A stretch of 53,040 nucleotides of DNA, counting the filler, from Jimgerdemannia flammicorona (taxonomy: Eukaryota): NCBI GenBank assembly GCA_003990765.1. It is 2 parts of 2 records of this genome, joined end to end, with 100 filler letters (N's around TTAATTAATTAA, not from the genome) between each part and the next. Parts side by side here need not be neighbours in the genome. Positions count along the whole stretch, not along the records: positions 26,591 to 53,040 come from RBNJ01000725.1; 1 more part is not named here. One strand, written 5' to 3'. Both the position numbers and the translations under genes were made by a program. Of this stretch, positions 5,071 through 53,040 are shown piece after piece. The notes under the pieces are model-generated. The model was not told the origin of the DNA. It saw only the letters and a program-made list of their open reading frames with translations, and made no database searches. Each line of letters begins with the position of its first letter. The stretch's first letter is position 1.

Positions 5071-6895
5071 AGCTGCTGAGCTGAAATGAGCGACTGATCT
5101 ATCCCCTTGCGTCCGCATCGGAAGCCACGTTGCCTGATGCCGTCTCCGAGTGTGTGTCGACATGGATTTCACTAGCAATGTTCATTTCACTTGTGATTCC
5201 ACCACGGGTTTCAAGACCTTTGCGTGGTGACATGCCCAGTCCAAAATTAAATTCCAGACTTCAAATTCGGCCAAGGGGAGCTGGTCGGAGGTGAGGATCC
5301 GCATGGAAAGTTGAGGAGATATTATTCGAAGAATGTGGCGCGCAAGACGGCAGACCCGAGGGTGGTCACCATGTGAACGACAGGGAAGTCAAGAAGCTCT
5401 TGGAAGAAATCGGGGAGAGTGAGTTGATGCGCGAGGATTATGAGAAACTAACTGACTGCGAAGGTTAAAAAGAAGGCGCTCTGGCATTTTCCTGTCGTCA
5501 TCGCCTTCTTTTATAACAACATGTTTTAACAGCTCCATTATGTCGGCTTCACATTCGAAACTCAGGGAGCAGCGATCAGATCGCGAAGAATTGTCGTTGA
5601 TGGTGCAGGAGTGCATGGAATGCGCCATTCGAAATGTTGGGCTTGCGAATTATGCCACTGGTCGTCTCCTTCCAGTCGTGGCTGAACAATGTATCGAAGT
5701 ATTTGGAGCGACAGCAAAGAATCTATGAATGGCCGTACATTGTAACTGACTCAACATTTTTGCACGTCTTGTCGTCTAAGTCACCTCCTCCAATCAAAAA
5801 ACGAACATCGCTGCCGTTGGGGTTGACGGTACGGCCATGTCTTGAGAAAGTTTGATGGCACCGGCGACGGAGGTACGATGTTGGGTATCTGGCATGTTGA
5901 CAGTGAGGGCTGTTGGTGTGAAGGAGTAGATATATAAAATATGGTAGAGTAATGTGTTCACTCTGGTTAAAAGCAGCTTTGGCTCATTTTTATGTGAATA
6001 TATTTGTATCTTCTCAATTGCCTCGGCGTCATATTGAGTCTGTTCAAATCAAAACCGACCTTATCTCCTAACGAAATAAGGCTGGTTTGGATTTTAACCC
6101 ATTCAATATGAATATTGCGGTGGCGGATATACGAGCGCAGGAAAAGAACCTCCCCTCACAGAGCGTCTTCATCCCCGGGCCCCAGCCAGCCGTTCCACCG
6201 CTCACACTCGCAACATGCTCAAGGATTCAGCTCTAAAGAATCTCTCTGTCTAGAGAAAAATCACTATCTTCAAGGCCCAACTCAGAGAACCAGCTCTACC
6301 TTTCTTAATTTTATCCGAAACTGTTGTTCACGACCGCGTTGAGCGCGATAAAATGTTTGTTATCATCCCTCTCCTTCCAGTCCCCAATTTATCTCCAACC
6401 CATGCTCAAGGTCGTTCATGCTGTCTGGTAATGAACAGTCGAGGGTTGGGCGTTTTATTTTGACGAGCCGTGACAGACTACAACCTTGATTCAGAAACAG
6501 GGTGACTCGCAAATTCTGCGATATTCGGAGTGATGATAAGATGCACTTGTCAAATGTCCTCCGTTATGTGTGCATGAAAATATGTCCGAATAGGAGGCGA
6601 AACCGGACGCGATACAACTCTATTACGCAAATGGCAAACAAAATTAACCGTGCTGCCATGTAAAAAAAAAAAAAAAAAAAAAAAACCCCCCGAAGGGGGA
6701 ACCCTGATCCCCAAAATAATTCAAAACAATTATAGACAAAATTTTCTAATGGTAGATGTCGCCCTCTCCACCCCTAAAAGGCCCGAATTGGACCACTTCC
6801 ACAAAAAAAAAGCGTAGCCTCCTCTAGTATATCACAACCCCACAGGCCCTAAATTCACTGCGTGCACGATCGTCCATAGTACCGCACCACATCCA

Positions 6896-9718: not shown

Positions 9719-10076
9719 TCTGTGGATTAAGGATTGAAATGGGGCCGTTGGCGGATATGGGGGAGAAAAGAGTTTTTGTGGCGGAAGTCTTGGACAATAC
9801 TTGTGGTTCGTGGTTCATGGCCTAGAAAATTTCTATAATCATATACAAATGGGGATGCCCGGGCGACGATCCTGTCAAGATCAGGAATTTCGTGACCAAA
9901 CCCCACCCCGTTTCAATCTAAACTTGCTGACTGCGCCGTGCAAGCTGGAAAATAAAATAAAATAAAAATTAAAAACTAGAACTAAAATCAGCGCTTTGCC
10001 TGACTATACAGACCATTAATTATTATAGATAAAAGTTGAGGAATAGGAAAAAAAAAAAAAAAAAAAAAAAAAACCA

Positions 10077-10135
<59 letters not shown>

Positions 10136-11452: not shown

Positions 11453-14400
11453 TTTTTTTTTTTTTTTTTTTTTTTTAATAGAATTAAGTAGTGTTCTCAA
11501 ATAAATTGAATCAAATCAAATTTAACCCAAACTTGATTCAATTTGATTGAATCAAAGGTCTAATTCAATTCAATTTAAATCAAATCAAAGGTCTAATTTA
11601 ATTTGAGATTTAATTTAAATTCTATTTTTTAAAATATAATAACTTAATAAAAACATATCTATATTTAAAGATATTTAGTTTGTTAAATTTAAGTATATTT
11701 CTATTAAGTTATTATATTTTTAAAAATAAGATTCAAATCAGACCCTCAATTCAATTCAAATTTAATTTGATTTGAACTTAATTCAAATTGATTTGATTTA
11801 TTTAAGAATACTAAAATTAAGTTCTTATAGATATTTATTAGAAGAGTACCTAAACTATATAGACCAAAACTCTCTCCCATCTTTCTCTTAAGCACTATCT
11901 CTCTATTGTTCTTAGGCTATATAGAGAACCCACAGTCTCACCATTCTAGCTATATAAGTGTAGTATTTTATACTTCTATTCCAATAATATATAGACTGAA
12001 CTAGTCTGTTTACTAAGACTGAATCATCAGATCAATACCATGAGAACATATCTATATATTAGATCTAATGATACTAAGACTGAATAATATAACCTCTTTG
12101 ACCTCAAATAAAAGTCAGAGATAAAAGAAAAATCCTTCAACCAATCAATAAGAAGTAGAATAGATTCAAGATAGGTGAGTAAAAGACTTATATGTGAGAT
12201 CTCTACAAAAGAACTTATATATAAGCTAAGATCTGAAAAGATCTCACTTCTACTCTCCAAGCCTATAGGCTTCAATTATATTATCATATTAACTCCTAGT
12301 TCTAGTCAGATACTATCAAATAAGAAAGAACCTACTCTTTAAGCCTATAGGCCTCTTTTTTTTTTATTTTTTTATATAGTCACTTGGACTTCTACTTTAT
12401 TATCCTCTAATCTATATTATACTAATACAAATATATAATATACTCCTCACTCAATCCTACAAAGAGTCTCCTCTTCTCTCCCATTTCTTTCTCTCCATCT
12501 TTTTGGAAATTTACTATCTCCTCTATAACTCTAATCCTCTTTCTAATCTATCTACAAATCTTCTCTATAAGTCTCTTATAGAGCTCTTCTCCAGATCTCT
12601 ACCCTCTCTATCAATTATTCAAAAGGTCTAATAATAACTATTTCTATCTCACAACTTACACTCCAAGTGCCAACTACTGACTATCCTCAAATATATATAG
12701 CTAATATTCAATAAGTTCAACCCAAATAGCCAGAACCCACCTAATAGTTAACTACTTATCTCCAATCTCTTCCACCAATATCCTCTGAAGATCACTCCAC
12801 CTTCTACCCACTATTTGCTCAGATAGATGTACTTCTATCTAATCCTTGATAGTCTTTTAAAAGTCTCTCATAACCTTGTACTCTCTCAGCCAATACTCAG
12901 GTATCTGTACTACTCTACTCTCTTACTCAATATTAAGGTACTCCTCATACTCCAGAGTACCCCCTTTTGTCAAATATCCTGATCTATAGTTCAATATCAC
13001 ATTGTACTATAAGAACCTCTACTATACTACCCAGAACTTAGGGGAAATCTACCTTACCACCTACTTGCTCTAAGACTAAATACTATTCCAGTCCCACTCT
13101 TTGCCAATTCCTACCCCTTGCTAGGTCTCCAGTCACAAATCTCTTCTATACTCTTGAAGATATTCTATACTATTCTCCAAACTAAAATCATCCACTGGTA
13201 TGCTCTCTAATAAAAGATAGTCCCATCTCTATATCTAGAGTCCCCAGTCCTTCTCTTCTCATCACTCTACTACTAAAGACTAATTTATTGAGCACCATCA
13301 ACTACTTCTCACTAGAATTTCCTATAGTGCATCTTCTAGCTCTTCTCTAGTACTATTTGAGAGAACAAGTTACCAGATGTACTATAGAGAGAGAATCATA
13401 CTTCCCACACTCTCTGTATAAGGGATACTCACTCTTGACCCCTCAACTTGCTAGCTTACTTCAGCCACCATACTCTCAAGCAGTATAGATACTTAGTAAA
13501 GTCCACTAGACTCAGCCCTATCTTGTCTACTGATAATGTCATTATCTTCCATCCAATCTGACTCTGCTGCTCTATCAAAATCTATGACCTGACTATCTTC
13601 AATAGTCTCTTAACCACCCATACTAAGAAGTTCAAGTGATATCCCAGATATCATAACTTAGACAGCTAATATATATTCAACATCATCACTCTTCTAGCCA
13701 GAGAGATATATTGGCCACCTCACCTCAGAAGAGTACTGCTCTACTCAATCAGCTACTGCTCTCACTATTTCTGAGATAATAGAGAACTATATACTGAGAA
13801 GTAGATCCCCAGATATCAGACCACCTCTTCTGCCAGAACAACTGTTCCAATCACATTCTCTCCTACTATTCCTCTACCTAATACCAAAGTCTTGCACTTA
13901 TATCAGTTAAGCTTAGTACCTAAGTATCTCTCATACTATTTTACTACACTCTTCAGTACTGTCACATCCTCCACAGAGCCCAGCCTAACTACTATATCAT
14001 CAGCAAAGACCCCCACCTTTCAGTTTATTCTCAGAATATTCAATCCCTCCACTTTGTACCTAATCCTGTCTAACAAAGGCTCTAGAGAGAGGGTATAAAG
14101 GATTGGTGACAGTAGGTCTCTCTGCAGCACTCCTCTGTCTAGAGGAAAAGACTCTCCCCTATAACTATTCATCATAATAGCCACCTGACTCCCCTCCAAC
14201 AGACTGATCAAAGCTTGCTTGAATCCTTGGAAAATCTCTATATACTTCAGCACCCCCTCCAGTCACACTTACTGGACCTTGTCATAGGCCTTCTCCTGGT
14301 CTAGAAATACTAGCTGACCATTGACCCTAGTAGCATGGGCTTCTTCAATAACACTGTGGACCCATGCTGTTCTATCTCTTATTAAATAACTCCTGACAAA

Positions 14401-26490: not shown

Positions 26491-26590
26491 NNNNNNNNNN
26501 NNNNNNNNNNNNNNNNNNNNNNNNNNNNNNNNNNTTAATTAATTAANNNNNNNNNNNNNNNNNNNNNNNNNNNNNNNNNNNNNNNNNNNN
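26491..26590. other. Artificial contig spacer (44 N + TTAATTAATTAA + 44 N)
   Basis: Exactly 100 bp and symmetric. The central 12-mer gives stops in all six frames. Confidence 0.95.
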
Positions 26591-36681: not shown

Positions 36682-39550
36682 TTAATTCAAGCGCGCCCAG
36701 CCCTGCTTGTTCGCTTTCCCGGTCAACGGTTGGTCGTCCTCGTAACTCCATCCCTCTTGATCCGGCTCGCTCAGCCCTCGCACCTGCTCCCATAGCTTCT
36801 TGTGCCGCTGCGTGGCCACGCCGTCCTGCACGGGCTCGTCAGGCCCGTCCATGTCCTGATCGAAGCGGTAAGGCGTCGCAGTTTTGTTAGCGCCGGCAGG
36901 TTCGGCACCGCCCTTCATGGTATTAGGGCGTGGGGAGTAGACGAATAGCGGGTAGTTGTTGTTGGTGGCCGAGGCGCCGGCACCACCTGTTGGAGGGAAC
37001 GCACCCAGTTCGTGCGATGCCGATCCGGGGACCCAGTAAGGGACTGGAGTGCGGGAGCGTTTCCGACGGCGGTAGATGACGTAAGCCGGGATGCCCGCGA
37101 GAGCTAAGAGGGCAAAGAGGCCGAACAGGCTGGAACCGCCGCCGTTGCTAGAAGCGGATTGCGGCGTCGGCGTCGACGTCGACGTTTGCGTGGAGCCAAC
37201 TGAGGCGGTGGTGTTGGGGGTCAGCGTCTGGGAAGAGAAGTCGAAAGAACAATTGGCCGTGGCGGCGCTCCAGCCGGCGGTGAGGTCGGCCGGAGGAGTG
37301 TAGCTGTCCAGCCAAACCCAGTTGACCAGATCAACGATACCGGCGTCATTGAGATATGTCCGGTTGGCTCCATAGCCTGTTTGACGTAAATATACATATC
37401 AGTTTGAGACGTTCTTGGTGACCCTTTCCAGCATTAATCGTGTGCATCAGCCATTCATACTCAAAGCGTTGTCTACTATTCGTCATCTTGTCTCAAAACC
37501 CAATGGTCCACACCATCCAATACAGAACAAAGCACGTCGGAAACTAATCCTCACCATTTATAATCAGCATCAAATTACCAAGTCTGATGGCGGCGTGACC
37601 CCCACGCGGAGCTATTTCGGTCCCGTTCACCTGCTGGTAACGCCACTTCATCGCACACGTATTCAGAACGTACATGGAACCCGTAACTATGAAATCATTG
37701 GTGGTCAATATACCTCCGTAAAGGGCGACGGAAAAGCCATCAGGCGCTGTGGTAGTAGGGACGCAAGTCTTGTTAGAGAATTCGGGACAATGCGGGACAC
37801 TACAATTTCCAATGGGGAACGACAGGGATGCAATACGAACCAGCGACGGCGGAGTGGCTATATGGGTTTCACAAAGAATAACAGATGGGCCACTTTAGTT
37901 CAACCTCCTTAGAGTACGGTATAGTATTCAACTAAGGAAAAATCGAAATTGATTCTTACGAGGTGCGTGAGGCTGGAATATCACCTGTCGTCGGTGACAA
38001 TTCCCAGAGAAGCAGAACAGTATCAAAAACTGAGAATACGTGGAAAAAAAAAAAAAAAAAAAAAACGTTCGGCTGTGCTCCAACCCTCTGATAATAGCCC
38101 ACACCCCTCTAGCTTACTTACCAAGAACATTTTCGAAACCAGCAACAAGTAAGCTCCAGCTTTTCGAGACGGCATCTTGAATACAGTTAATACCGCCCAT
38201 GATAAAGAGTTTGTCCCCGCTGTAGATTCGACGGGAATATCGAATGTCGACAGTGAAATAAAGAGGATCGATGCATGCGGTCGGTAAAAGGTATCAGCGG
38301 GTTTCGAGATATTCTCAATTCCTATCGGTTGTGGGTGTCCATCACAGCCGGGAATGCCAAGAAATCCCTCTCTCCTTGCCCTCCTTCCTCTCTTTCATAC
38401 AGCGTGTGTCATAAAATCCAAAGTATTGAGAACCTACACAGCGGTCATGGTATGCTGATAACGGCCCGGCGGCTTACCCCCCGATTGCAAGACCGGAGTA
38501 TCATAAAAGTTTGTAGCCGTGAAGAGACGATAGAAATCGTTGAACTAGCATCGTTAAAAAAAAAATAAAAATAAAAAAGACGAAGGATAAGAATCGGAGA
38601 TAAATGGTGTAGATCGCGTTAATAACATCGCTACACCACCGCCAATACAATATGGAAAGCCCCACACACACAGAGAGTGAAAGTTCACAACGCGATGCCA
38701 ACGTTCCTGGAGAACTGGAGCGCGCTACTCACATAAGTCCAAGTATTATTGTTACTGGTATCGGTGCCCTCGCCACCAAAGAACCAGACCTCACCGTCCG
38801 CGCCCGGCTCCGCGGCATGAAGCTTCCTGGGGGCCGGTCGGCTTCCCCATATGATAGGCAAACTCCAAGATTGTGTTGTGGCATTGAACATGACCAAATT
38901 GAACGTGTCGTTGAGGTTGCCGTTGTTACCAGCGCCGGCGAAGAGAGAGGTACCATCAGAGGTGGAAAAGGCCACACCTGATTGTGATACAGAAGGAGGC
39001 AGGGGAAGCATGAGCGACAAGCTCGAGAGTTATTTTCGAAGCCGACCTAAGACCCGCCGCACAGAGTCGTGTTAATGTACCTTCGTTGTATCCGTTAAGG
39101 ATGGTTGTGCTGTTGGCGATGGCGCTCAGATCCGTCCATGGAATGCTGGAGAGATTCCAGGGTTGAGATATATCGACAGACCAGAACTGGAAAGAAATCT
39201 AAACGGGAAACCAAAATGAACAGACAGAGACCGAATCAGTCACAGGGTGTTTGACCATTAATGAAGATAAATATCAATAAGACATACGATGCTGCCTGCA
39301 ACGGAATATAGTTTGTTTTGGAGGCGCACTACGCTATTGAGAACAAGAACGAGACGTGTGTGCAAAAGTAAGTAAACGTCAGTGTCATTTCCACCGCAAG
39401 AGAAATGCCTGGCACCCAAAGCAATTGTATGTTGTCTGGAGCTCACTTGAATTCAGTGACGTTGGTTGGTCCAGCGGTGGCTCTGGATGTCATCAGAGAC
39501 AACATGGACAGAGCTGCCAGGGCAACACAGACCGAGACTTTCGGGCTCAT
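36682..39550 (-). CDS. Kelch/beta-propeller single-pass membrane protein, multi-exon
   Basis: Signal peptide MSPKVSVCVALAALS…; kelch motifs (FNATTQSW, PAPRKLHAA, VWFFGG, LFIMGG); Ser/Thr stalk, TM helix (~37085-37135) and cytoplasmic tail ending at 36682. Confidence 0.85.
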
Positions 39551-39880
39551 GGCGGTCAAAGTACTGTATGCTAAGTGTTACAGTGAAGAGAAGAGTGTCC
39601 TGTTTCTTGTCAAGAGGGTATTAAAGTCTTGATAAACATCTCGCCATTTCCGAGCAGTGTTGCACGGCTTGCCCAATTGGCTGAGCTTCCATATGTCCTA
39701 AACAGGGAGATACGTTTAATCGACCACAAATTGCCTAATTGCGAACCTTGTCAAGGAATCGAGGCATGCTCATTTTAGAGGAATTCTGAAGCATGAATCG
39801 ATCACAAAAATCCCACGCTAAATTCGCTGCCATAGCATTTCGGCATAAGTCGGCCGATCGATCGAAGAGGATAATCGAAA

Positions 39881-39913
<33 letters not shown>

Positions 39914-40214
39914 AGAAAAAAAAGACTAAATTGATTTGTGTTTGTTGTGACCCGGCCTTACTCCCGTCATAAGTAGGCTCGAGGTCCTGCGTATGGCTTG
40001 TACAACCTCGACATGTTAGCACTCAAAGTCCATTCAATCGCGGAACCTATTGTGGCCTTTTGTTTTTGATTGTACATTCTTCGAAAAATCTTGTACATAT
40101 TTCATGAACGGATTTGTTATATGGGGCGTGCTGCAACAAAATCAGACAAAGTGAACATTAATTTTGACGTCACTCAATGCATCAGCTCGAAGATTTTATT
40201 TTTGCCATCGCTTT

Positions 40215-41160
40215 GCTTGTAGCTTTTTAATAATGAGAAGGACACAACAAAAGTTCACAAGAAAAGAAGAGCAAAACAGCAACAAGCTTTGTCTAGATTT
40301 TTTCTTCTTATTTATTGATTGTGTCAAGCAATCTTTGCTTGTTCTTGCACTTCTTTGGCTTCTCATTTTGCTCAATATTTAGCAATAGCTTTGATAAAGT
40401 CTTCATTTTTGAGATCTGAAATAGTAGTTTTAAGATGATAGATATTAGGAGCTTTGATGTATCTGTTGACAGCATTATCAGGTAGAATCAAATATTTATC
40501 AGGGAAAAAATCTCTTGTTTTTTCTATTATAACTGGATTATCATCAATAAAAATATCAAAGTCTAGGTTCTCCTCTTTCAATCATATCAATGAGTGAGAT
40601 ATCAACCATTGCCATCTTTAGCAGGAGGATTAGTTTTGATAAACAATAAGTGGGTATTAGGAAAGTTCCTAAAAGTTTTCTGAAAAGGTTTTATTTTTCT
40701 ATAAAATTTAATCACTAGCTAAATCCTTATATTTTCCTTTCAGAGTGGTAGTTAAAATAATTAATTCCTCAATTAATTGACCATCTTGGAGTACTAATAA
40801 TAATTCCTTTTCAATAGAAAGAAAAGATGAATAATTATAAAAAGTAGATTGATCACTATAATATTATTTATCTTTTTAATTTTCTTCTTTCTTCTCAATC
40901 ATCAAGCTTGATAATTCTTTTCTTTTCATCAGAATTATCAGGATCAATGTAGGAAATTTTCATCAATTAGTATTTATTTTAGTATTAGGAGAAAATGAAT
41001 AATCTTTATTCTCATAGAGTATAATTTTTGCTTTCTCTTAAAATCTTTTAAAGTATTCTACAAAATTTATATTTTTCTTACTAACTTCTTAAAGAAGAAA
41101 TAGCTTGAAAGATATTAAACATTCACTCAGTTATAGATGACTTTGACTTTTCTCTCTTTG
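40215..41160 (-). pseudogene. Left-arm HAD-like (5'-nucleotidase-like) gene remnant of probable Mollicutes origin
   Basis: KVKVIYN[TGA] (motif-I-like, 41150-41127); STFYNYSSFLSIEKELL…LIEELIILT; [TGA]LKEENLDFDIFIDDNPVII (HAD motif IV-like D..IDD); hydrophobic C-terminal tail. Intronless, decayed. Confidence 0.6.
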
Positions 41161-41829
41161 AGTTTAACTTACTCTTTGATAAAAGTATAGAGAGAGTTAG
41201 TTTTATTTTGATTATTTATATTTTTACAACTTTAGTAATATAAATAATTTTATTTATTAATTATGTAGTTTTGGATAAGTAATATATATCTTTAAATTTA
41301 TCTCTGACAAATAGGCAAATATTATAATAAAGATATTCCTGATATTTAAATTCTAGCATTAGAAATAACAAGGTCTTGATTTTTTTTATACTCTTTAAAC
41401 TCTCAAACTTACTGGTTTTTAATAACTTGAATTCTTGAAAAGAACTGTTTGCAACTTCTTAGACTTTAACAATACCTAGATTTGCTCTAGTGAAAAAAAA
41501 AATATTGAAACTTTTATAAACTAGACAATTTTTTAAAATATATTTCCAGACTACTTATAATGTTATAATATTGAAAATCTTTATTACTATTATAATGCTA
41601 AGCTTTATTTAATCTAACAATGCTAGATCTTTTTACTATATTGCAGATATAGTCTATATAGTCTATCATAGTTTTATGATAAAGTCTTTTAATCAAGCTA
41701 AAACTACCATACATTTAAATTTAGTATAATCTAAAACTATAAAATTAGCTCAATAGTTTCATAATAACCAGTAATTATCAGATATAAATATATAAAACCA
41801 AAGAGTAGTATTGTTTTTATTTTATTTAT

Positions 41830-42660
41830 CTACATTATTATAAGTAACTTTTAAATACTTTTCTTCTTTATTTAATTGCTTAATACTATCAAATATTAGG
41901 CTAAGAGTACCATTCAGACCTGTTTTAAAAAGCTTATTCTCATCTAGTATATAATTAATTTACTCATATACTACTTTATTTTAGATTTCAAACAACTATA
42001 CTAAGATAATATATTTTACTGATTTATTAATTTGAATAAGATATATAGATATTTTGGACTTAGTTATAACTGTAATAGACAGTAGTATCAATGTCTTTAG
42101 AACTTGTTAGTATTAGCTTAAAAAGAGGATCTGGTTGAAGAATTAATAATTTTAACTGTTGCTATGAAAGAGAGGTATCCTAATAATAGTGGTAATCCTA
42201 AAAAAATTAAACCATTTTCCTCAATGTAAATTAAAATTCATCCTAACTGTCAAGAAAATGATGATTATTTTCCTCTAAGATGGGTATGAATACTCTGGAT
42301 TTCAATATTTTTATTGAAGATAATCCAGTTATAATAGAAAAAACAAGAGATTTTTTCCCTGATAAATGTTTGATTCTACCTGATTATGCTCCCAACAGAT
42401 GCATCAAAGCTCTGAATATTTATCTTCTTAAAACCACTGTTTCCGATCTCAAAGATGAAGACTTTGTCCAAGCTGCTACCAAATTTGAGCCAAGTAAGAA
42501 GCCAAAGAAGCCTAAAAACAAGCCAAGATTGCTCAGCACAATTAGCAAATAAGAAGACAAAATTGAGACAAAGCTGGTGTTGTTTATGGTCTGCTTTTTC
42601 TGGTGAACTTCTATTGTGTTCTTCTCATCATTAAAAAGTGATGAACAAATGGCAAATAAA
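41830..42660 (+). pseudogene. Right-arm paralog of the HAD-like gene
   Basis: EDLVEELIILTVAMKERYPNNSGNPKK; RWV[TGA]I…DFNIFIEDNPVIIEKTRDFFPDK…; hydrophobic tail at ~42575-42635. 5' boundary approximate. Confidence 0.6.
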
Positions 42661-42799
42661 ATCTTCGAACTGATGCATTGAGTGACGTCAAATGTTCACT
42701 GTCTGGTTTTATTGCAGCACGCCCCATATATAATTATATGCTTAATCTGATCACAAAGTACACAATTCACGTTGCACCCCCTCCCCAAAACCGCAACGT

Positions 42800-44878: not shown

Positions 44879-45830
44879 TCAATACCTTCTTACCACTCCG
44901 TCCCTCCCCGCACACACCACGCCCTGCTTTCCCAAAAGCCGTAGGTTGGCGATCGGATCCATGTCAAACCCAGAATACTCGTGCGTGACTCGCAGCGATG
45001 ATGGATCAGCGGAGAGGAGAGGGCTGGTTTGGCACGCGGCGCCATCAACTAGTATGATAACAATGGTAAGAAACTCTATTTCACCGACATCAAGTCCACT
45101 TTCGTTTTCATACAACTTGTCCGTATAGGAAGTATTCATACCAGTCGCAATGAACAGCACCGGTGCTCCTTTGTCATCTTTTGAGATAACAACATCCTGG
45201 ATTGGATACTCATTACGATAGAATGTCACAAGCGGTTTGCTATCGTTATTTGTTGAAAAAAAGTGAGAGTATGAACGCGATGATGTACAGTTCAAAAATT
45301 GTACCCGGTGTAGAGTACTGTCTAGAAATCGAGGGTTAAAAAAACAAAATAATCATGACGCACCTGATATCTCTTAAATCCCAAGCATTAATCACGCCTT
45401 GCGCATCACCTGACACGACTAGATTCCATTGTGGCGCGTAGGCACACGCAATCGAAGCGGCCGATTTTGCGGATGTTGCGAAAACCTGATGTGGTTATGG
45501 CGTTGCGAATCCAATCAAAAATCGAAGCCGTAAGACGAGCCAAAAAAAAAAAAAAAAAACCCCCCAACGATCGAAGAGTAGCAATAGCACGTAAACGTAG
45601 ATCTTATCATACTTCAGCCTTGCTCCTCAGGTCGATTCCCCGCAAAGAACCATCGCTCACAGCTGCGAGCAAGAGTTTATCTTCCGTTTCCACCTCCCTC
45701 GAATCTATGTAACCGAGGCCAAATTGAAAGGTCACAAAATAGTAATGGTTAGTCTTGTGCCTAATAGAAACAAATGTCGTGAATAAAATTGAGAGTAACG
45801 AGATACGATGCTCCGGTTCAATTTGTCCAC

Positions 45831-45867
<37 letters not shown>

Positions 45868-49466: not shown

Positions 49467-52400
49467 TCAACTGCCTATAACACCGCGATATTCCTCCAAT
49501 ACCATTCCCACCACACCGCCAGGTTTCACGCGTTCCTCTTTAATCGGGCCGGTCTCCTCTTCCCATAGTCTCTTCCCCTCTCTTCCCCTCGACTCGGCCT
49601 TGTTTCCTAGAGACGACCCCCTGCTCCTGCCTTCCCTCTCGTTACTGTAATCGTCCGTCTTGTTATCATCCGTCTCCCTCCTCATTGTCCTCGACTCGGC
49701 CCTGTTTCCTAGAGACGACCCCCTGCTCCTGCCTTCCCTCTCGTTACTGTAATCGTCCGTCTTGTTATCGTCCGTCTCCCTCCTCATTGTCCTCGACTCG
49801 GCCCTGTTTCCTAGAGACGACCCCCTGCTCCTGCCTTCCCTCTCGTTACTGTAATCGTTCGTCTTGTTATCGTCCGTCTCCCTCCTCATTGTCCTCGACT
49901 CGGTCCTGTTTCCCAGAGACGACCCTCTGCCCCTGCCTTCTCTCTCGTTACTGTTATCGTCCATCTTGTTATCGTCCGTCTCCTTCCTCGTTGTACTTGA
50001 CAACCATCTGGGCGACTCGCGCCCATTTTCGTCGCCCATGTACCTCAGCCCGGACCGTGACGACAGGTTCGATGCCGACTGCGCCGCGCTGCTGGCACGA
50101 TAATTTCCTAGCGACCCGCGTGATTCTGACCGAGGTCTCGTCGACGTGTGCGGCGAGCTGGGGCGGTCGCGATCACCGTAATCGCGTTGCGGTTCCTGCA
50201 TCCCCTTCCCGGCGCTCAAGCTTCTCGCGTGCCTCTCGTGCGTCAATCCGATCGGACGATCATCCGACCCCCGTATTCCCTTCCCGGCACTCAAGCTCCT
50301 CGCGCTCCTCTCGTGCGTCAATCCGATCGGACGATCATCCTCCGATCCATCGTCGCCTGGGGCTCTCCTCTCCTCCCGCTCACGACTTTCTCTCTTCAAT
50401 CGCCTTCCCCTCCGAGCCTCCTCCGCCGCCGCCGCTGCGGCGCGCTCCGCCCACGGGTCATCCTCCCTCGGCAACCGATCTGCCCAGGGGTCTATCTCCT
50501 CGTCGTCGAAGAGGCTGCTCTTGCTGACGCTGCGGCTGTGTGACGTCCTTGACTCGGGATTCTTGCCTGTCCCAGGGATCGGGAATCCGTTAAGATCGAG
50601 CTGAGAGCCGATCCTATCCAGGGCGGGCGAAGATGATCCGGATACAGGCTTGCCGTGACTCCCGCGTATGCGGTCCATGGGAGATTCGGCTCCTTCCCTC
50701 TCGCGCGCGAATTCGTACTGCTTTTCGCGCGTGCGGTCGCGGACCTTGGCCGCCGGGGTAGCGAGGAAGTCGGCGGAGGGCGAGACCACAGGGACGTTTT
50801 CGTCGTCGTTGTCGTTGCCTCGCCGGCTAGACTGGCGGCTAGACTGGCGGCTGTCGCGAGGAGAGATGACGCGGTTTGGAGAGTCGGCGGATGCGCGACT
50901 GTTGGCGCCGCTGTTATTGTTGTTCGCACTGCCCTGACCGGCCTTGGCGAGCCACTCATCGCGTTCGCGTTCTGCCGGGGTGCGCAGGTCAGCCAGGCTG
51001 CGGCGGGCGGAGATAGAGAGGCGTTCCGTGTCGGCCATCATGCCAAGGGGAACGCCGTCAGAAACGGCGATAGGGACATTGTCATCCGAAGCGTTGTCGT
51101 CGAGGGTTTTGTTGGAGGAGTAAGTGCGTCGCGAAGGGGTTGATTTGGTGGCGGCGTAGGAAGAGGCGCTAAATTCCCTGGAGTACAGGTCAGATCTCGA
51201 AGGCAGTTTGCGCAATGGTGAGTTCACGCCATCGCTTTTCCGATAATCCAACGACTCGCGCTGCGATAAGAACCCGTCGGCTTCGTCTTGCCAGAAGAAT
51301 TTGCTTCGACCCGTGGGCGACGTGGGACTCTGATGTTCGACAGGGATGGTGGGCACGGGAGGAAGCCCACCGCGCGGAATGAACAGGTCCTCGACTGGCG
51401 AGCCTACCTGCTCGCCCCTTATCCGTTCACGGGAACGGGATCGTGCACGCTGCTCCATGAAATCGCGGTCCTCGCGCGTGAGCGATCGAGAGCGGCCGTC
51501 GGCAGTTAAGGAGTTTTTGCTAGACTGATGGCGCAGGCTGGCCCTGAGCTCGGGATCGGCTTCGCGTGACTGGCGCGCCGACCAGCGGCCTCTCTCTTCG
51601 TCCTCTCTGTCCCTTTCGCGCTCGGCCTCTCTGCTACGTCTGGACATAGCCGAGGGGAGTGGTGGCAAGTCCTTAGAATCGCCGAACGATTTACGACTCG
51701 CATCGTCGCGCAACGACTTGTTCGACTCCTTCTTTTGCAGGCTGTTCTTACTCTTGTTGAATTCCTCCATTCTCATCACAGGCGTCGAGTCCCTACCCTT
51801 ACCGGAATACGACCCGCGTACTCCCATGTCACCTTCCTCGTCTCTCATAATGTCCCTGTCCCTCGACTTTCTCGACGTGCCTGGAACAGGCCTACGATTC
51901 AGGAATCTTGACGGCTCTTCGTCATCACCCGAACCGTGCTGCAGCTCCACCACCACAGACGACATGGGAAGCGTGGACGGGCCCCCCCCCGATCCCAGGT
52001 CGGCGACGTGTCTAGGCAACTGCGGCACGTGCGATCTGCCACCGCTCCTTTCCAGCGACTTGCGGATCAATGAACGCTTCGACGATTTCCCTGAGTTCCC
52101 TCCCTTTCCAATATCCTCCAGTTCGGATGAGTCGTCACCATTCCCATGCCGGCCGGCTGTCTCAGCCGGCATGATCCCGCGCGGGGCACGTTCTGCCACC
52201 GTGGTCCTGCCGTTGCGGTTCCGCGTCTCGGGATCATGCCTGGGCATCATGCGCCGCAGAATAACGAACATGATAACTGCGATCACAATAACCACGGCCA
52301 CAAGGACAACGACGACGGCCCATGTCGGGAACTGCCCGAACCCAAGATCGATGGTGTCCGTGCTTGCGGGGTACATGGTCTTGGCCTGCGTCATCAGGCC

Positions 52401-53040
52401 ATTGCAATTGTCCGAGAGCGGACATTGGTCGCCGAACATAGCGAGGCTCGCGACATGTGGGGGAAGGCCCAGCAGCGCAGCGTGCGCCGTGTTGGCGGTA
52501 AAGATGGCAAAGAACTGCTGCCTGTACCACGATTCACAGTCGTACGTGTTGTTGGCGGACATGTTACTGTTCTGGTCTCCTTCCCAGGTACAGGTGAGGA
52601 CGTATGGTGACCATGGGCTGCCTTGCATCTTGTAGTTGTCGGGAAAAGCTATGGAAGTGCGGAAGTCGTAACCGTATTTTGCGGCGTCGGAATGGAACGC
52701 CGTAATATTCATTTGCCAGTTGTTTGGGGAGAATTGTTCATAGTTCAATTGATAGCAGCATGGTGAGACTGCATGGATGGTTGACGAATGCAGGGACGAT
52801 AGGCCGAATGTATAGGCGCGATGGTTTGAAGGAAATAAGAGAGGAATATATTACAATTGTGTCAATAATATCGGGTGTGTTTCGCTGCTGGGAGTGTTGG
52901 TTGCATAAGCTTGCTTCCCCCTCTGTTGTGTAAGTGAAAGCGGCAAACGTTTTCAGGGATCACGGACAAGAACAAAGATCCCGGAGGTGCATTGTATGAC
53001 GAAGAGGACACCGTGAATGAATCTCGGACCAGTTGGGGGG
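49467..53040 (-). CDS. Large single-pass membrane protein (Cys-containing ectodomain, TM, ~930-aa disordered R/S/E-rich cytoplasmic tail); 5' end outside the window or unresolved
   Basis: 1093-codon open exon 49467-52748 extending to a CAG acceptor at ~52770; TM WAVVVVLVAVVIVIAVIMFVIL followed by RR. Confidence 0.8.
49590..49990 (-). repeat. 102-bp (34-aa) coding tandem repeat, ~4 copies
   Basis: RRETDDNKTDDYSNEREGRSRGSSLGNRAESRTM repeated, with near-identical DNA units. Confidence 0.95.

Follow-up and report, generated by a model that had tools for sequence, protein, structure and literature searches.

An AT-rich insert with matching ends

The window analyzed here is a stretch of 53,040 nucleotides from the fungus Jimgerdemannia flammicorona (assembly GCA_003990765.1), with a GC content of about 50% overall and an AT-rich island at 40.1-42.7 kb. 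A sequence-only reading of positions 40215-42660 had described this stretch as very AT-rich and had proposed that it carries cargo derived from Mollicutes, written in genetic code 4 (in which TGA encodes Trp) and transferred from an endobacterium to the fungus. The AT-richness was evident, with a GC content of 21-31% inside the island compared to 44% and 54% in its flanks. We could delimit an insert of about 2.6 kb (40123-42725) that is bounded by terminal inverted repeats (TIRs) of about 45 nt, with ATAT outside each end. The insert contains a cargo gene from a family with a predicted HAD fold and the C-terminal half of a transposase gene, both on the minus strand. The N-terminal half of the transposase is replaced by an inverted partial duplicate of the end of the cargo gene plus the TIR. 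The features of the insert are the following.

40119..40122, no strand: ATAT, probable 4-bp target-site duplication, directly outside GGGG...CCCC at both ends
40123..40173, plus strand: left TIR, GGGGCGTGCTGCAA...GACGTCAC, inverted match to 42683-42725
40174..40304, minus strand: spacer downstream of the left HAD-like copy, within the inverted duplication (arm alignment 81-96% identical)
40305..41100, minus strand: left cargo pseudogene, predicted HAD fold; 5' limit approximate
41285..42098, minus strand: remnant of a DUF7869 DDE-type transposase, from tblastn under table 4 with protein P0108
42122..42552, plus strand: right inverted partial HAD-like copy, extending from the motif II region as far as the stop; frameshift near 42290
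42553..42682, plus strand: right-arm spacer, from the arm alignment
42683..42725, minus strand: right TIR, inverted match to the left TIR
42726..42729, no strand: ATAT, second copy of the probable target-site duplication, adjoining the right end

The arms of the inverted duplication are 96% identical over the outer 90 nt, then 81% over 170 nt and 89% over 190 nt, and the motif DF.IFI.DNP lies within the outward-reading frame of either arm. A palindrome spanning the whole element was considered and rejected: a local alignment reached the centre with 75% identity, but the centre consists of the transposase remnant, which lies on one strand. Repeat-induced point mutation (RIP) was also rejected as the source of the AT-richness because the indices of the arms are not RIP-like (at 40001-41000, TpA/ApT of 0.73 and (CpA+TpG)/(ApC+GpT) of 1.74); those of the centre (41001-42000) were 1.23 and 0.81, a weak signal. 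No Rfam family matched anywhere in the window, and no Pfam family, NT5C included, matched the open reading frame (ORF) pieces of the window at E<=1.

The insert sits 13.5 kb inside a contig of 26,450 bp (window positions 26591-53040). Endogonales-like genes were found on both sides of it, the best non-self match of the flanking genes being Endogone sp. (62% identity in the right flank and 45% in the left flank).

Two decayed copies of a HAD-like cargo gene

Both copies of the cargo gene in the window are pseudogenes, since 8 in-frame TAA/TAG codons and frameshifts are present and the region of the DWDE motif is gone. The left copy shows 3 TGA codons in its aligned part, the 8 TAA/TAG codons and at least 2 frameshifts. 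None of these 8 stops falls on a Trp; they lie on Q, K, E, G and similar residues. The left frame at 41037-40315 contains 6 in-frame TGA codons in addition to the 8 TAA/TAG. Three of these TGA codons (40374, 40365 and 40326) appear only because 1 nt has been inserted in the left arm, whose true 3' frame reads IEQNEKPKKCKNKQRLLDTINK-stop, the same as in the right arm. The longest cargo frame in the window under table 4 has 101 codons at most. A frame-0 piece of the left copy, KISYIDPDNSDEKKRIIKLDD, matches the homologue P0015. Motif I (DxD) reads DWDE in the homologues; the left copy has a 14-residue alignment gap there, and the right copy begins downstream of it. The acidic pair of motif IV is present in both arms, as DFDIFIDDNP on the left and DFNIFIEDNP on the right, and D165 and D166 are nearly invariant.

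Using the left copy read through under NCBI table 27 as a query, an exhaustive phmmer search of 1.84 billion representatives returned 87 matches at E<=1e-3, including 33 at E<=1e-10. Full-length relatives have 260-320 aa and align to residues 47-235. Among the 10 matches that were looked up for names were J. flammicorona RUP44057.1 (88% identical), Endogone sp. RUS22880.1 and KLL03255.1 of 'Mycoplasmataceae bacterium CE_OT135', a Mollicutes-related endobacterium (MRE); two further ones carried generic function labels only. A scan of prokaryote species genomes placed family members on the complete chromosome of the Dentiscutata heterogama MRE (DhMRE), with 3 copies containing 3-4 in-frame TGA codons each. 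The same scan also gave a weak third match, L003, in a Leptospiraceae metagenome-assembled genome (MAG), with an E value of 2e-4. The cargo-family tree groups both copies of the window with the Jimgerdemannia model in a clade (97).

The fold was assessed on a family model and not on the broken window copy. An AlphaFold model of DhMRE P0095 with 28 homologues (pLDDT 88, pTM 0.87) matched HAD phosphatases almost exclusively: there were 28 PDB matches at E<=1e-3, all to HAD phosphatases among the matches listed, including the deoxyribonucleotidase-like 3bwv and the 5'(3')-deoxyribonucleotidase 4mum. The model thus assigns a HAD-phosphatase fold to the cargo family. With members in DhMRE and MRE CE_OT135 and in two Endogonales fungi, this agrees with the resemblance to a HAD-like family of endobacteria that the sequence-only reading had suggested. 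Nine full-length homologues gave weak, subthreshold Pfam matches at E<=0.1, none of them to NT5C or another HAD family, and the class C acid phosphatase profile matched weakly at motif I (E 0.08). Many members of the family have a membrane anchor at their end. We also observed a protein of 863 aa (P0008, on a 124,893-bp contig) in which two HAD-like modules are fused to a HIT domain, and HIT is a separate cargo gene in the metagenome locus L012, which hints at a shared nucleotide-related function.

A DUF7869 transposase remnant

The transposase remnant (42098-41285) corresponds to about residues 300-578 of 585-589 and contains at least 4 frame changes and 11 stops, most of which align to Gln (CAA/CAG) of relatives. 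A frame-tiled composite of the remnant is 61% identical to the protein P0109 over 261 residues. The transposase ORF of a related metagenome locus, L008, matched Pfam DUF7869 with an E value of 1.3e-17 (64.5 bits compared to a cut-off of 26). Two D...D motifs, YDWAQN and CDNxGGQNKN, are conserved. A model of DUF7869 (pLDDT 82) gave weak matches, almost all to transposases or integrases such as IstA, TnsB and retroviral integrases, with a best E value of 8.9e-4 and TM scores of 0.2-0.4.

In a quick maximum-likelihood tree of 42 transposases, rooted at the midpoint, the window composite falls in a clade of 9 rows (SH-aLRT 97) together with the code-4 transposase of L008, metagenome proteins, Ambispora models from small contigs and one Geosiphon model. 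This clade is nested in one of 19 rows (96) that includes a protein from a 'Ca. Moeniiplasma glomeromycotorum' MAG, encoded on a contig of 124,773 bp. Copies of Rhizophagus and Gigaspora on Mb-scale contigs fall in other clades. Five Geosiphon models (P0030, P0123, P0143, P0183 and P0188), on contigs of 0.2-1.2 Mb, show 55-69% identity to a transposase of the code-4 clade; one of them, P0030 (Geosiphon pyriformis G9A89_005473, on a 211,609-bp contig), matches the HAD-like cargo as well as the transposase. Similar insertions may be present in the Geosiphon genome.

TGA codons at tryptophan positions

The TGA codons named in the sequence-only reading are all present: at 40584-40582 (minus strand), at 42287-42289 (plus strand, within R-W-V-TGA-I), as a TGATGA pair at 40965-40960 and at 41129-41127 after KVIYN. 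TGA is not enriched overall, and the argument is positional. The codon after KVIYN lies outside every homologue-aligned stretch and hence provides no evidence. The second TGA of the pair (40962) falls on the near-invariant W of the FW motif of the family, this site reading TGA-TGA-K in the window. The TGA at 42287 in the right arm falls on the second W of an RWxW motif, the preceding W being encoded by TGG. At the sites matching these two window codons, DhMRE writes Trp as TGA: in copy 1, TGA encodes the Trp of DWD, that of NFW and the second Trp of KWQW (the first is TGG), and in the paralogous copy 2 it encodes the second W of FWWK.

It had also been claimed that TGA occupies the equivalent position in both arms. 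The RWxW site of the left arm reads TGG-x-TGG and is followed by a 24-nt duplication and then by TGA, so that its alignment is ambiguous. Under one alignment the claim holds. Under another one, which is about equally good, the TGA of the right arm faces the TGG at 40608 in the left arm and the equivalence is lost. The TGA at 40584 pairs with W219 of DhMRE copy 2, itself encoded by TGA.

In the transposase remnant, the window has TAA at 42062 where W312 of L008 is encoded by TGA; TAA is one transition away from TGA and two from TGG. At its Trp sites, the window has three TGA codons, one TAA (facing a TGA in the relative) and no TAG. Since decay of CpA to TpA would convert TGG into TAG, the occurrence of TGA and TAA without TAG favors an ancestor that wrote TGA. 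The TGA codons of the window are no more than suggestive by themselves, in line with the caution of the sequence-only reading that TGA can arise by decay. The decisive evidence comes from intact sister elements.

Intact sister elements read in code 4

The exact 22-mer of the element end was found in 28 soil-metagenome loci, in which the next 25 nt or so are conserved too. Across 31 TIR ends, conservation is 80% or more over roughly the first 36 nt, with most columns at 90% or above, and the outer flanks all differ. Position -4 is an A in 30 of these ends (positions -3 to -1 of the target site were fixed by the search pattern), which, together with the ATAT on both sides of the insert in the window, points to a 4-bp palindromic target duplication.

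Several sister loci consist of a TIR, a variable cargo and then the transposase; the one or two cargo genes read outward and are flanked by a TIR on one side and by the 3' end of the transposase gene on the other. Inward from its TIR, L008 (29% GC) contains an ORF of 313 aa that belongs to the cargo family (5 TGA, 0 TGG), followed on the same strand by the DUF7869 ORF of 585 aa (3 TGA, 2 TGG). Outward-reading ORFs in 15 loci are open only under table 4, with about 90 TGA compared to 16 TGG, and the frames under table 1 are far shorter. This feature was observed in L008, L013, L015, L025 and others. The cargo of the sister loci, as identified with Pfam, includes a member of the uridine kinase family, a leucine-rich repeat (LRR) protein with a membrane anchor, HIT, and coiled-coil/zinc-ribbon proteins. 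The whole interior of the insert, transposase remnant included, belongs to this code-4 lineage, and not the cargo alone. The earlier proposal of a Mollicutes-derived cargo passed from endobacterium to fungus is supported by the homologues, the TGA sites and the modelled fold alike, though it is too narrow.

The outer flanks of L005, L006 and L017 have a eukaryotic appearance, with a frame-broken aldo-keto reductase, a Tc1-like ORF and a copia-type reverse transcriptase, names that were given by manual reading of the translations. Two TIR ends stand head to head in L009 (1485-1526), as CCCC-ATAT-GGGG with one shared ATAT, and in L026 (at about 1040-1084), 8 nt apart; these could be adjacent insertions or the junction of an excised circle.

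In sequencing run X1, 69 contigs aligned to the element, and 24 of them fit both ends with differing flanks. The contigs pile up on the outer 45 nt or so of both ends and then diverge into different flanks and interiors, indicating that the TIR family is multicopy in that organism. Other X1 contigs match parts of the arms at 85-97%, one of them covering 40186-40265 with 2 differences. Altogether, the contigs of this run cover both TIRs, the right flank and portions of the arms.

Origin and history of the insert

The probable history of the insert, in our judgment, is that a transposon of a code-4 MRE lineage inserted into the fungal nucleus and then decayed. The stretch at 40123-42725 would be a dead, rearranged cut-and-paste DNA transposon with TIRs of about 45 nt, a 4-bp ATAT duplication and a DUF7869 DDE-type transposase. 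The line from which this copy descends would have replicated in a code-4 organism, most likely an MRE in the fungal cytoplasm, and transposition, not the chance integration of bacterial DNA, would have brought the element into the nucleus. Because of their in-frame TGA codons, the genes of the element would not be expressible in the nucleus, and later decay would have consisted mostly of C-to-T changes (CAA to TAA). Both TIRs survive, so the element may still be moved in trans, and the presence of related copies in run X1 as well as in Jimgerdemannia suggests multiplication within the fungal genome. Two Endogonales gene models, RUP44057.1 and RUS22880.1, probably represent pieces of dead elements of this kind.

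Several observations weigh against this history, and they are given here with the alternatives to which they lend weight. Residence in an MRE is inferred from the genetic code, the relatives of the cargo and the label of one MAG, and outer flanks rich in GC (43-53%) beside intact code-4 cargo in L004, L020, L024 and L031 make the residence of intact copies less certain. The HAD-like family occurs in one of the 5 searched genomes of the DhMRE family (DhMRE alone), neither the TIR nor DUF7869 was found in any of the 5, and P0108 matched none of the 149 scored genomes of the order, 2 others not being scorable. The code-4 source might then be a different organism or compartment in which TGA means Trp, for example another Mollicute or a mitochondrial element. 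This seems very unlikely to us, given that DhMRE carries the cargo family in 3 copies on its chromosome, that MRE CE_OT135 has one copy and that one transposase of the clade is labelled Ca. Moeniiplasma, on its contig of 124,773 bp. The types of cargo (LRR with membrane anchor, HIT, uridine kinase) fit an MRE too, LRR genes being reported for MRE in the part of PMC10507103 that was available.

A second group of contrary observations concerns the eukaryotic side of the element. DUF7869 is otherwise eukaryotic, the nearest Atlas clusters being 85-100% Eukaryota, and true nuclear copies exist on the Mb-scale contigs of Rhizophagus. Two loci with the same TIR, L014 (374-2380) and L017 (44-1987), both at 45% GC, carry a P-loop NTPase of 650-670 aa, STAND/AAA-like, in the standard code (0 TGA, 7 TGG). 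Moreover, two sites that are TGA in relatives are TGG in the window (40608, W173 of DhMRE, and 41800, W403 of L008). Such observations would suit a native fungal transposon in the standard code, whose TGA codons arose by G-to-A decay of TGG and from which MRE took both the cargo family and the transposon. The eukaryote-type genes next to the TIR ends of L005, L006 and L017 and the many window stops that are C-to-T products also speak for it, and transfer from fungus to MRE is the direction mostly reported in the available parts of PMC10507103 and PMC5982333. We nevertheless regard this origin as unlikely, since sister elements that belong to the clade and share the TIR have frames that only table 4 opens, since the GC content drops from that of the flanks to that of the interior, and since decay of TGG by CpA-to-TpA changes would have left TAG at the Trp sites. 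A native fungal origin could still be true of the deeper ancestry of the transposase.

The remaining contrary points concern the resolution of the data. The cargo tree is poorly resolved (4 of 38 inner branches starred), and both trees are quick searches with midpoint roots. Reading the window under table 4 leaves its frames closed, as the 8 TAA/TAG codons and the frameshifts persist. No aligned X1 read or contig spans a junction together with the interior, and no joint was called in that run. The last point leaves some room for an assembly artefact, in which a fragment of an MRE or of another foreign source was misjoined into a fungal contig. Endobacteria are possible in this type of sample, MRE contamination of Mucoromycota assemblies is documented in the available parts of PMC11423566 and PMC10507103, and the window itself is made of two contigs, joined at 26491-26590 by two runs of 44 N around TTAATTAATTAA, an artificial six-frame-stop linker. 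We consider a misjoin highly improbable. The insert lies 13.5 kb within its contig, between Endogonales-like genes, and ends exactly in the TIRs of the family with ATAT on either side; its heavy pseudogenization is unlike a resident bacterial gene, and other TIR ends adjoin eukaryote-type genes as well.

If insertion of an MRE-lineage transposon is the right history, one can name what carried the DNA across: a TIR transposon that depends on the bacterial code in its intact copies and is present as dead copies in fungal chromosomes. The route would be testable, as TIR/ATAT junctions can be searched for in any Mucoromycota assembly, and the junctions would serve as a marker to separate true nuclear insertions from MRE contamination. 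It would also mean that a eukaryote-type transposase is able to live in a bacterium. Going further, a eukaryote-type DUF7869 transposon might have colonized MRE, been recoded, taken up endobacterial cargo and now jump back into host nuclei, in an active two-way shuttle. We put this forward tentatively, at somewhat less than an even chance. The cargo of such a shuttle would comprise a HAD-fold phosphatase, HIT, uridine kinase, LRR and coiled-coil proteins, and its hosts would include Endogonales and Geosiphon. As the TIR is almost unchanged across the 28 soil contigs, it would be currently active between fungus and endobacterium.

Other features of the window

Two further AT-rich regions of the window are strongly asymmetric: 1-2600 has almost no C, with a GC skew of up to +0.49, and 12000-14000 has almost no G, with a GC skew down to -0.47. 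This asymmetry looks like heavy C-to-T mutation of repeats on one strand, resembling RIP, which would be unexpected for a Mucoromycota-type genome. Intergenic poly(A) tracts of up to about 80 nt occur at 10057-10134, 39877-39921, 45830-45864, 6660-6685 and 38040-38064; one long tract lies 200 nt left of the element. An AT-rich near-palindrome at 11562-11789 has arms of 107 nt that are 70% complementary, separated by a spacer of 14 nt, and is composed of short 'aatttgatt/caaatcaaa' units. At 49485-49994, at least 4 tandem units of 102 nt, 94-99% identical, are found within a frame of 1127 codons (49467-52850, minus strand).

Comparison with known systems

Transfer from MRE to fungus is already published: according to the available part of a review (PMC8227670), Sun et al. 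2019 (New Phytol 221:1556) found gene transfer from an MRE to Diversispora epigaea. The available parts of PMC10507103, PMC11423566, PMC5982333 and PMC4916391 describe transfer from fungus to MRE, contamination of assemblies by MRE and abundant MRE mobile elements. We found no published account in which a transposon serves as the vehicle. In our literature search, which did not extend to Sun 2019, Chang 2019 or supplements, this transposon, DUF7869 in MRE and MRE-derived inserts in Endogonales were not described, and the name 'DUF7869' was not found. As in Diversispora epigaea (PMC8227670, same part), the donor would be a Mollicutes-related endobacterium and the recipient the nuclear genome of a Mucoromycota host. 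In contrast to that case, the host here is of the Endogonales type, the transferred genes are dead and the unit has TIRs and a target-site duplication at its ends, so that a transposon, and not bare DNA, appears to be the vehicle.

The element shares with the eukaryotic DUF7869 (PF25273) DDE transposons, which are abundant in Glomeromycotina nuclei, the DUF7869 domain, the D...D motifs, TIRs and a short target-site duplication; the matches of its modelled transposase to RNase-H-like DDE folds are weak. It differs from them in that the intact members of its clade need TGA to be read as Trp, have a GC content of 27-35% and carry MRE-type cargo. Target-site duplications of 4 bp are also made by Sola transposons.

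The cargo family shares its modelled fold with the HAD phosphatases (5'(3')-deoxyribonucleotidase/NT5C-like and class B/C acid phosphatases), and its homologues contain the D-x-D of motif I as DWDE and the DD of motif IV as FIDDNP. Unlike these enzymes, the family has no Pfam match, NT5C included, and many of its members end in a membrane anchor; the window copies are broken and lack motif I. Finally, the element resembles Pack-MULE-like and other cargo-carrying transposons in that one TIR family holds different captured genes at a fixed position. It differs from them in that the cargo is written in two genetic codes, code 4 in most loci and the standard code for the NTPase of L014 and L017, which suggests residence in two genomes of one symbiosis.

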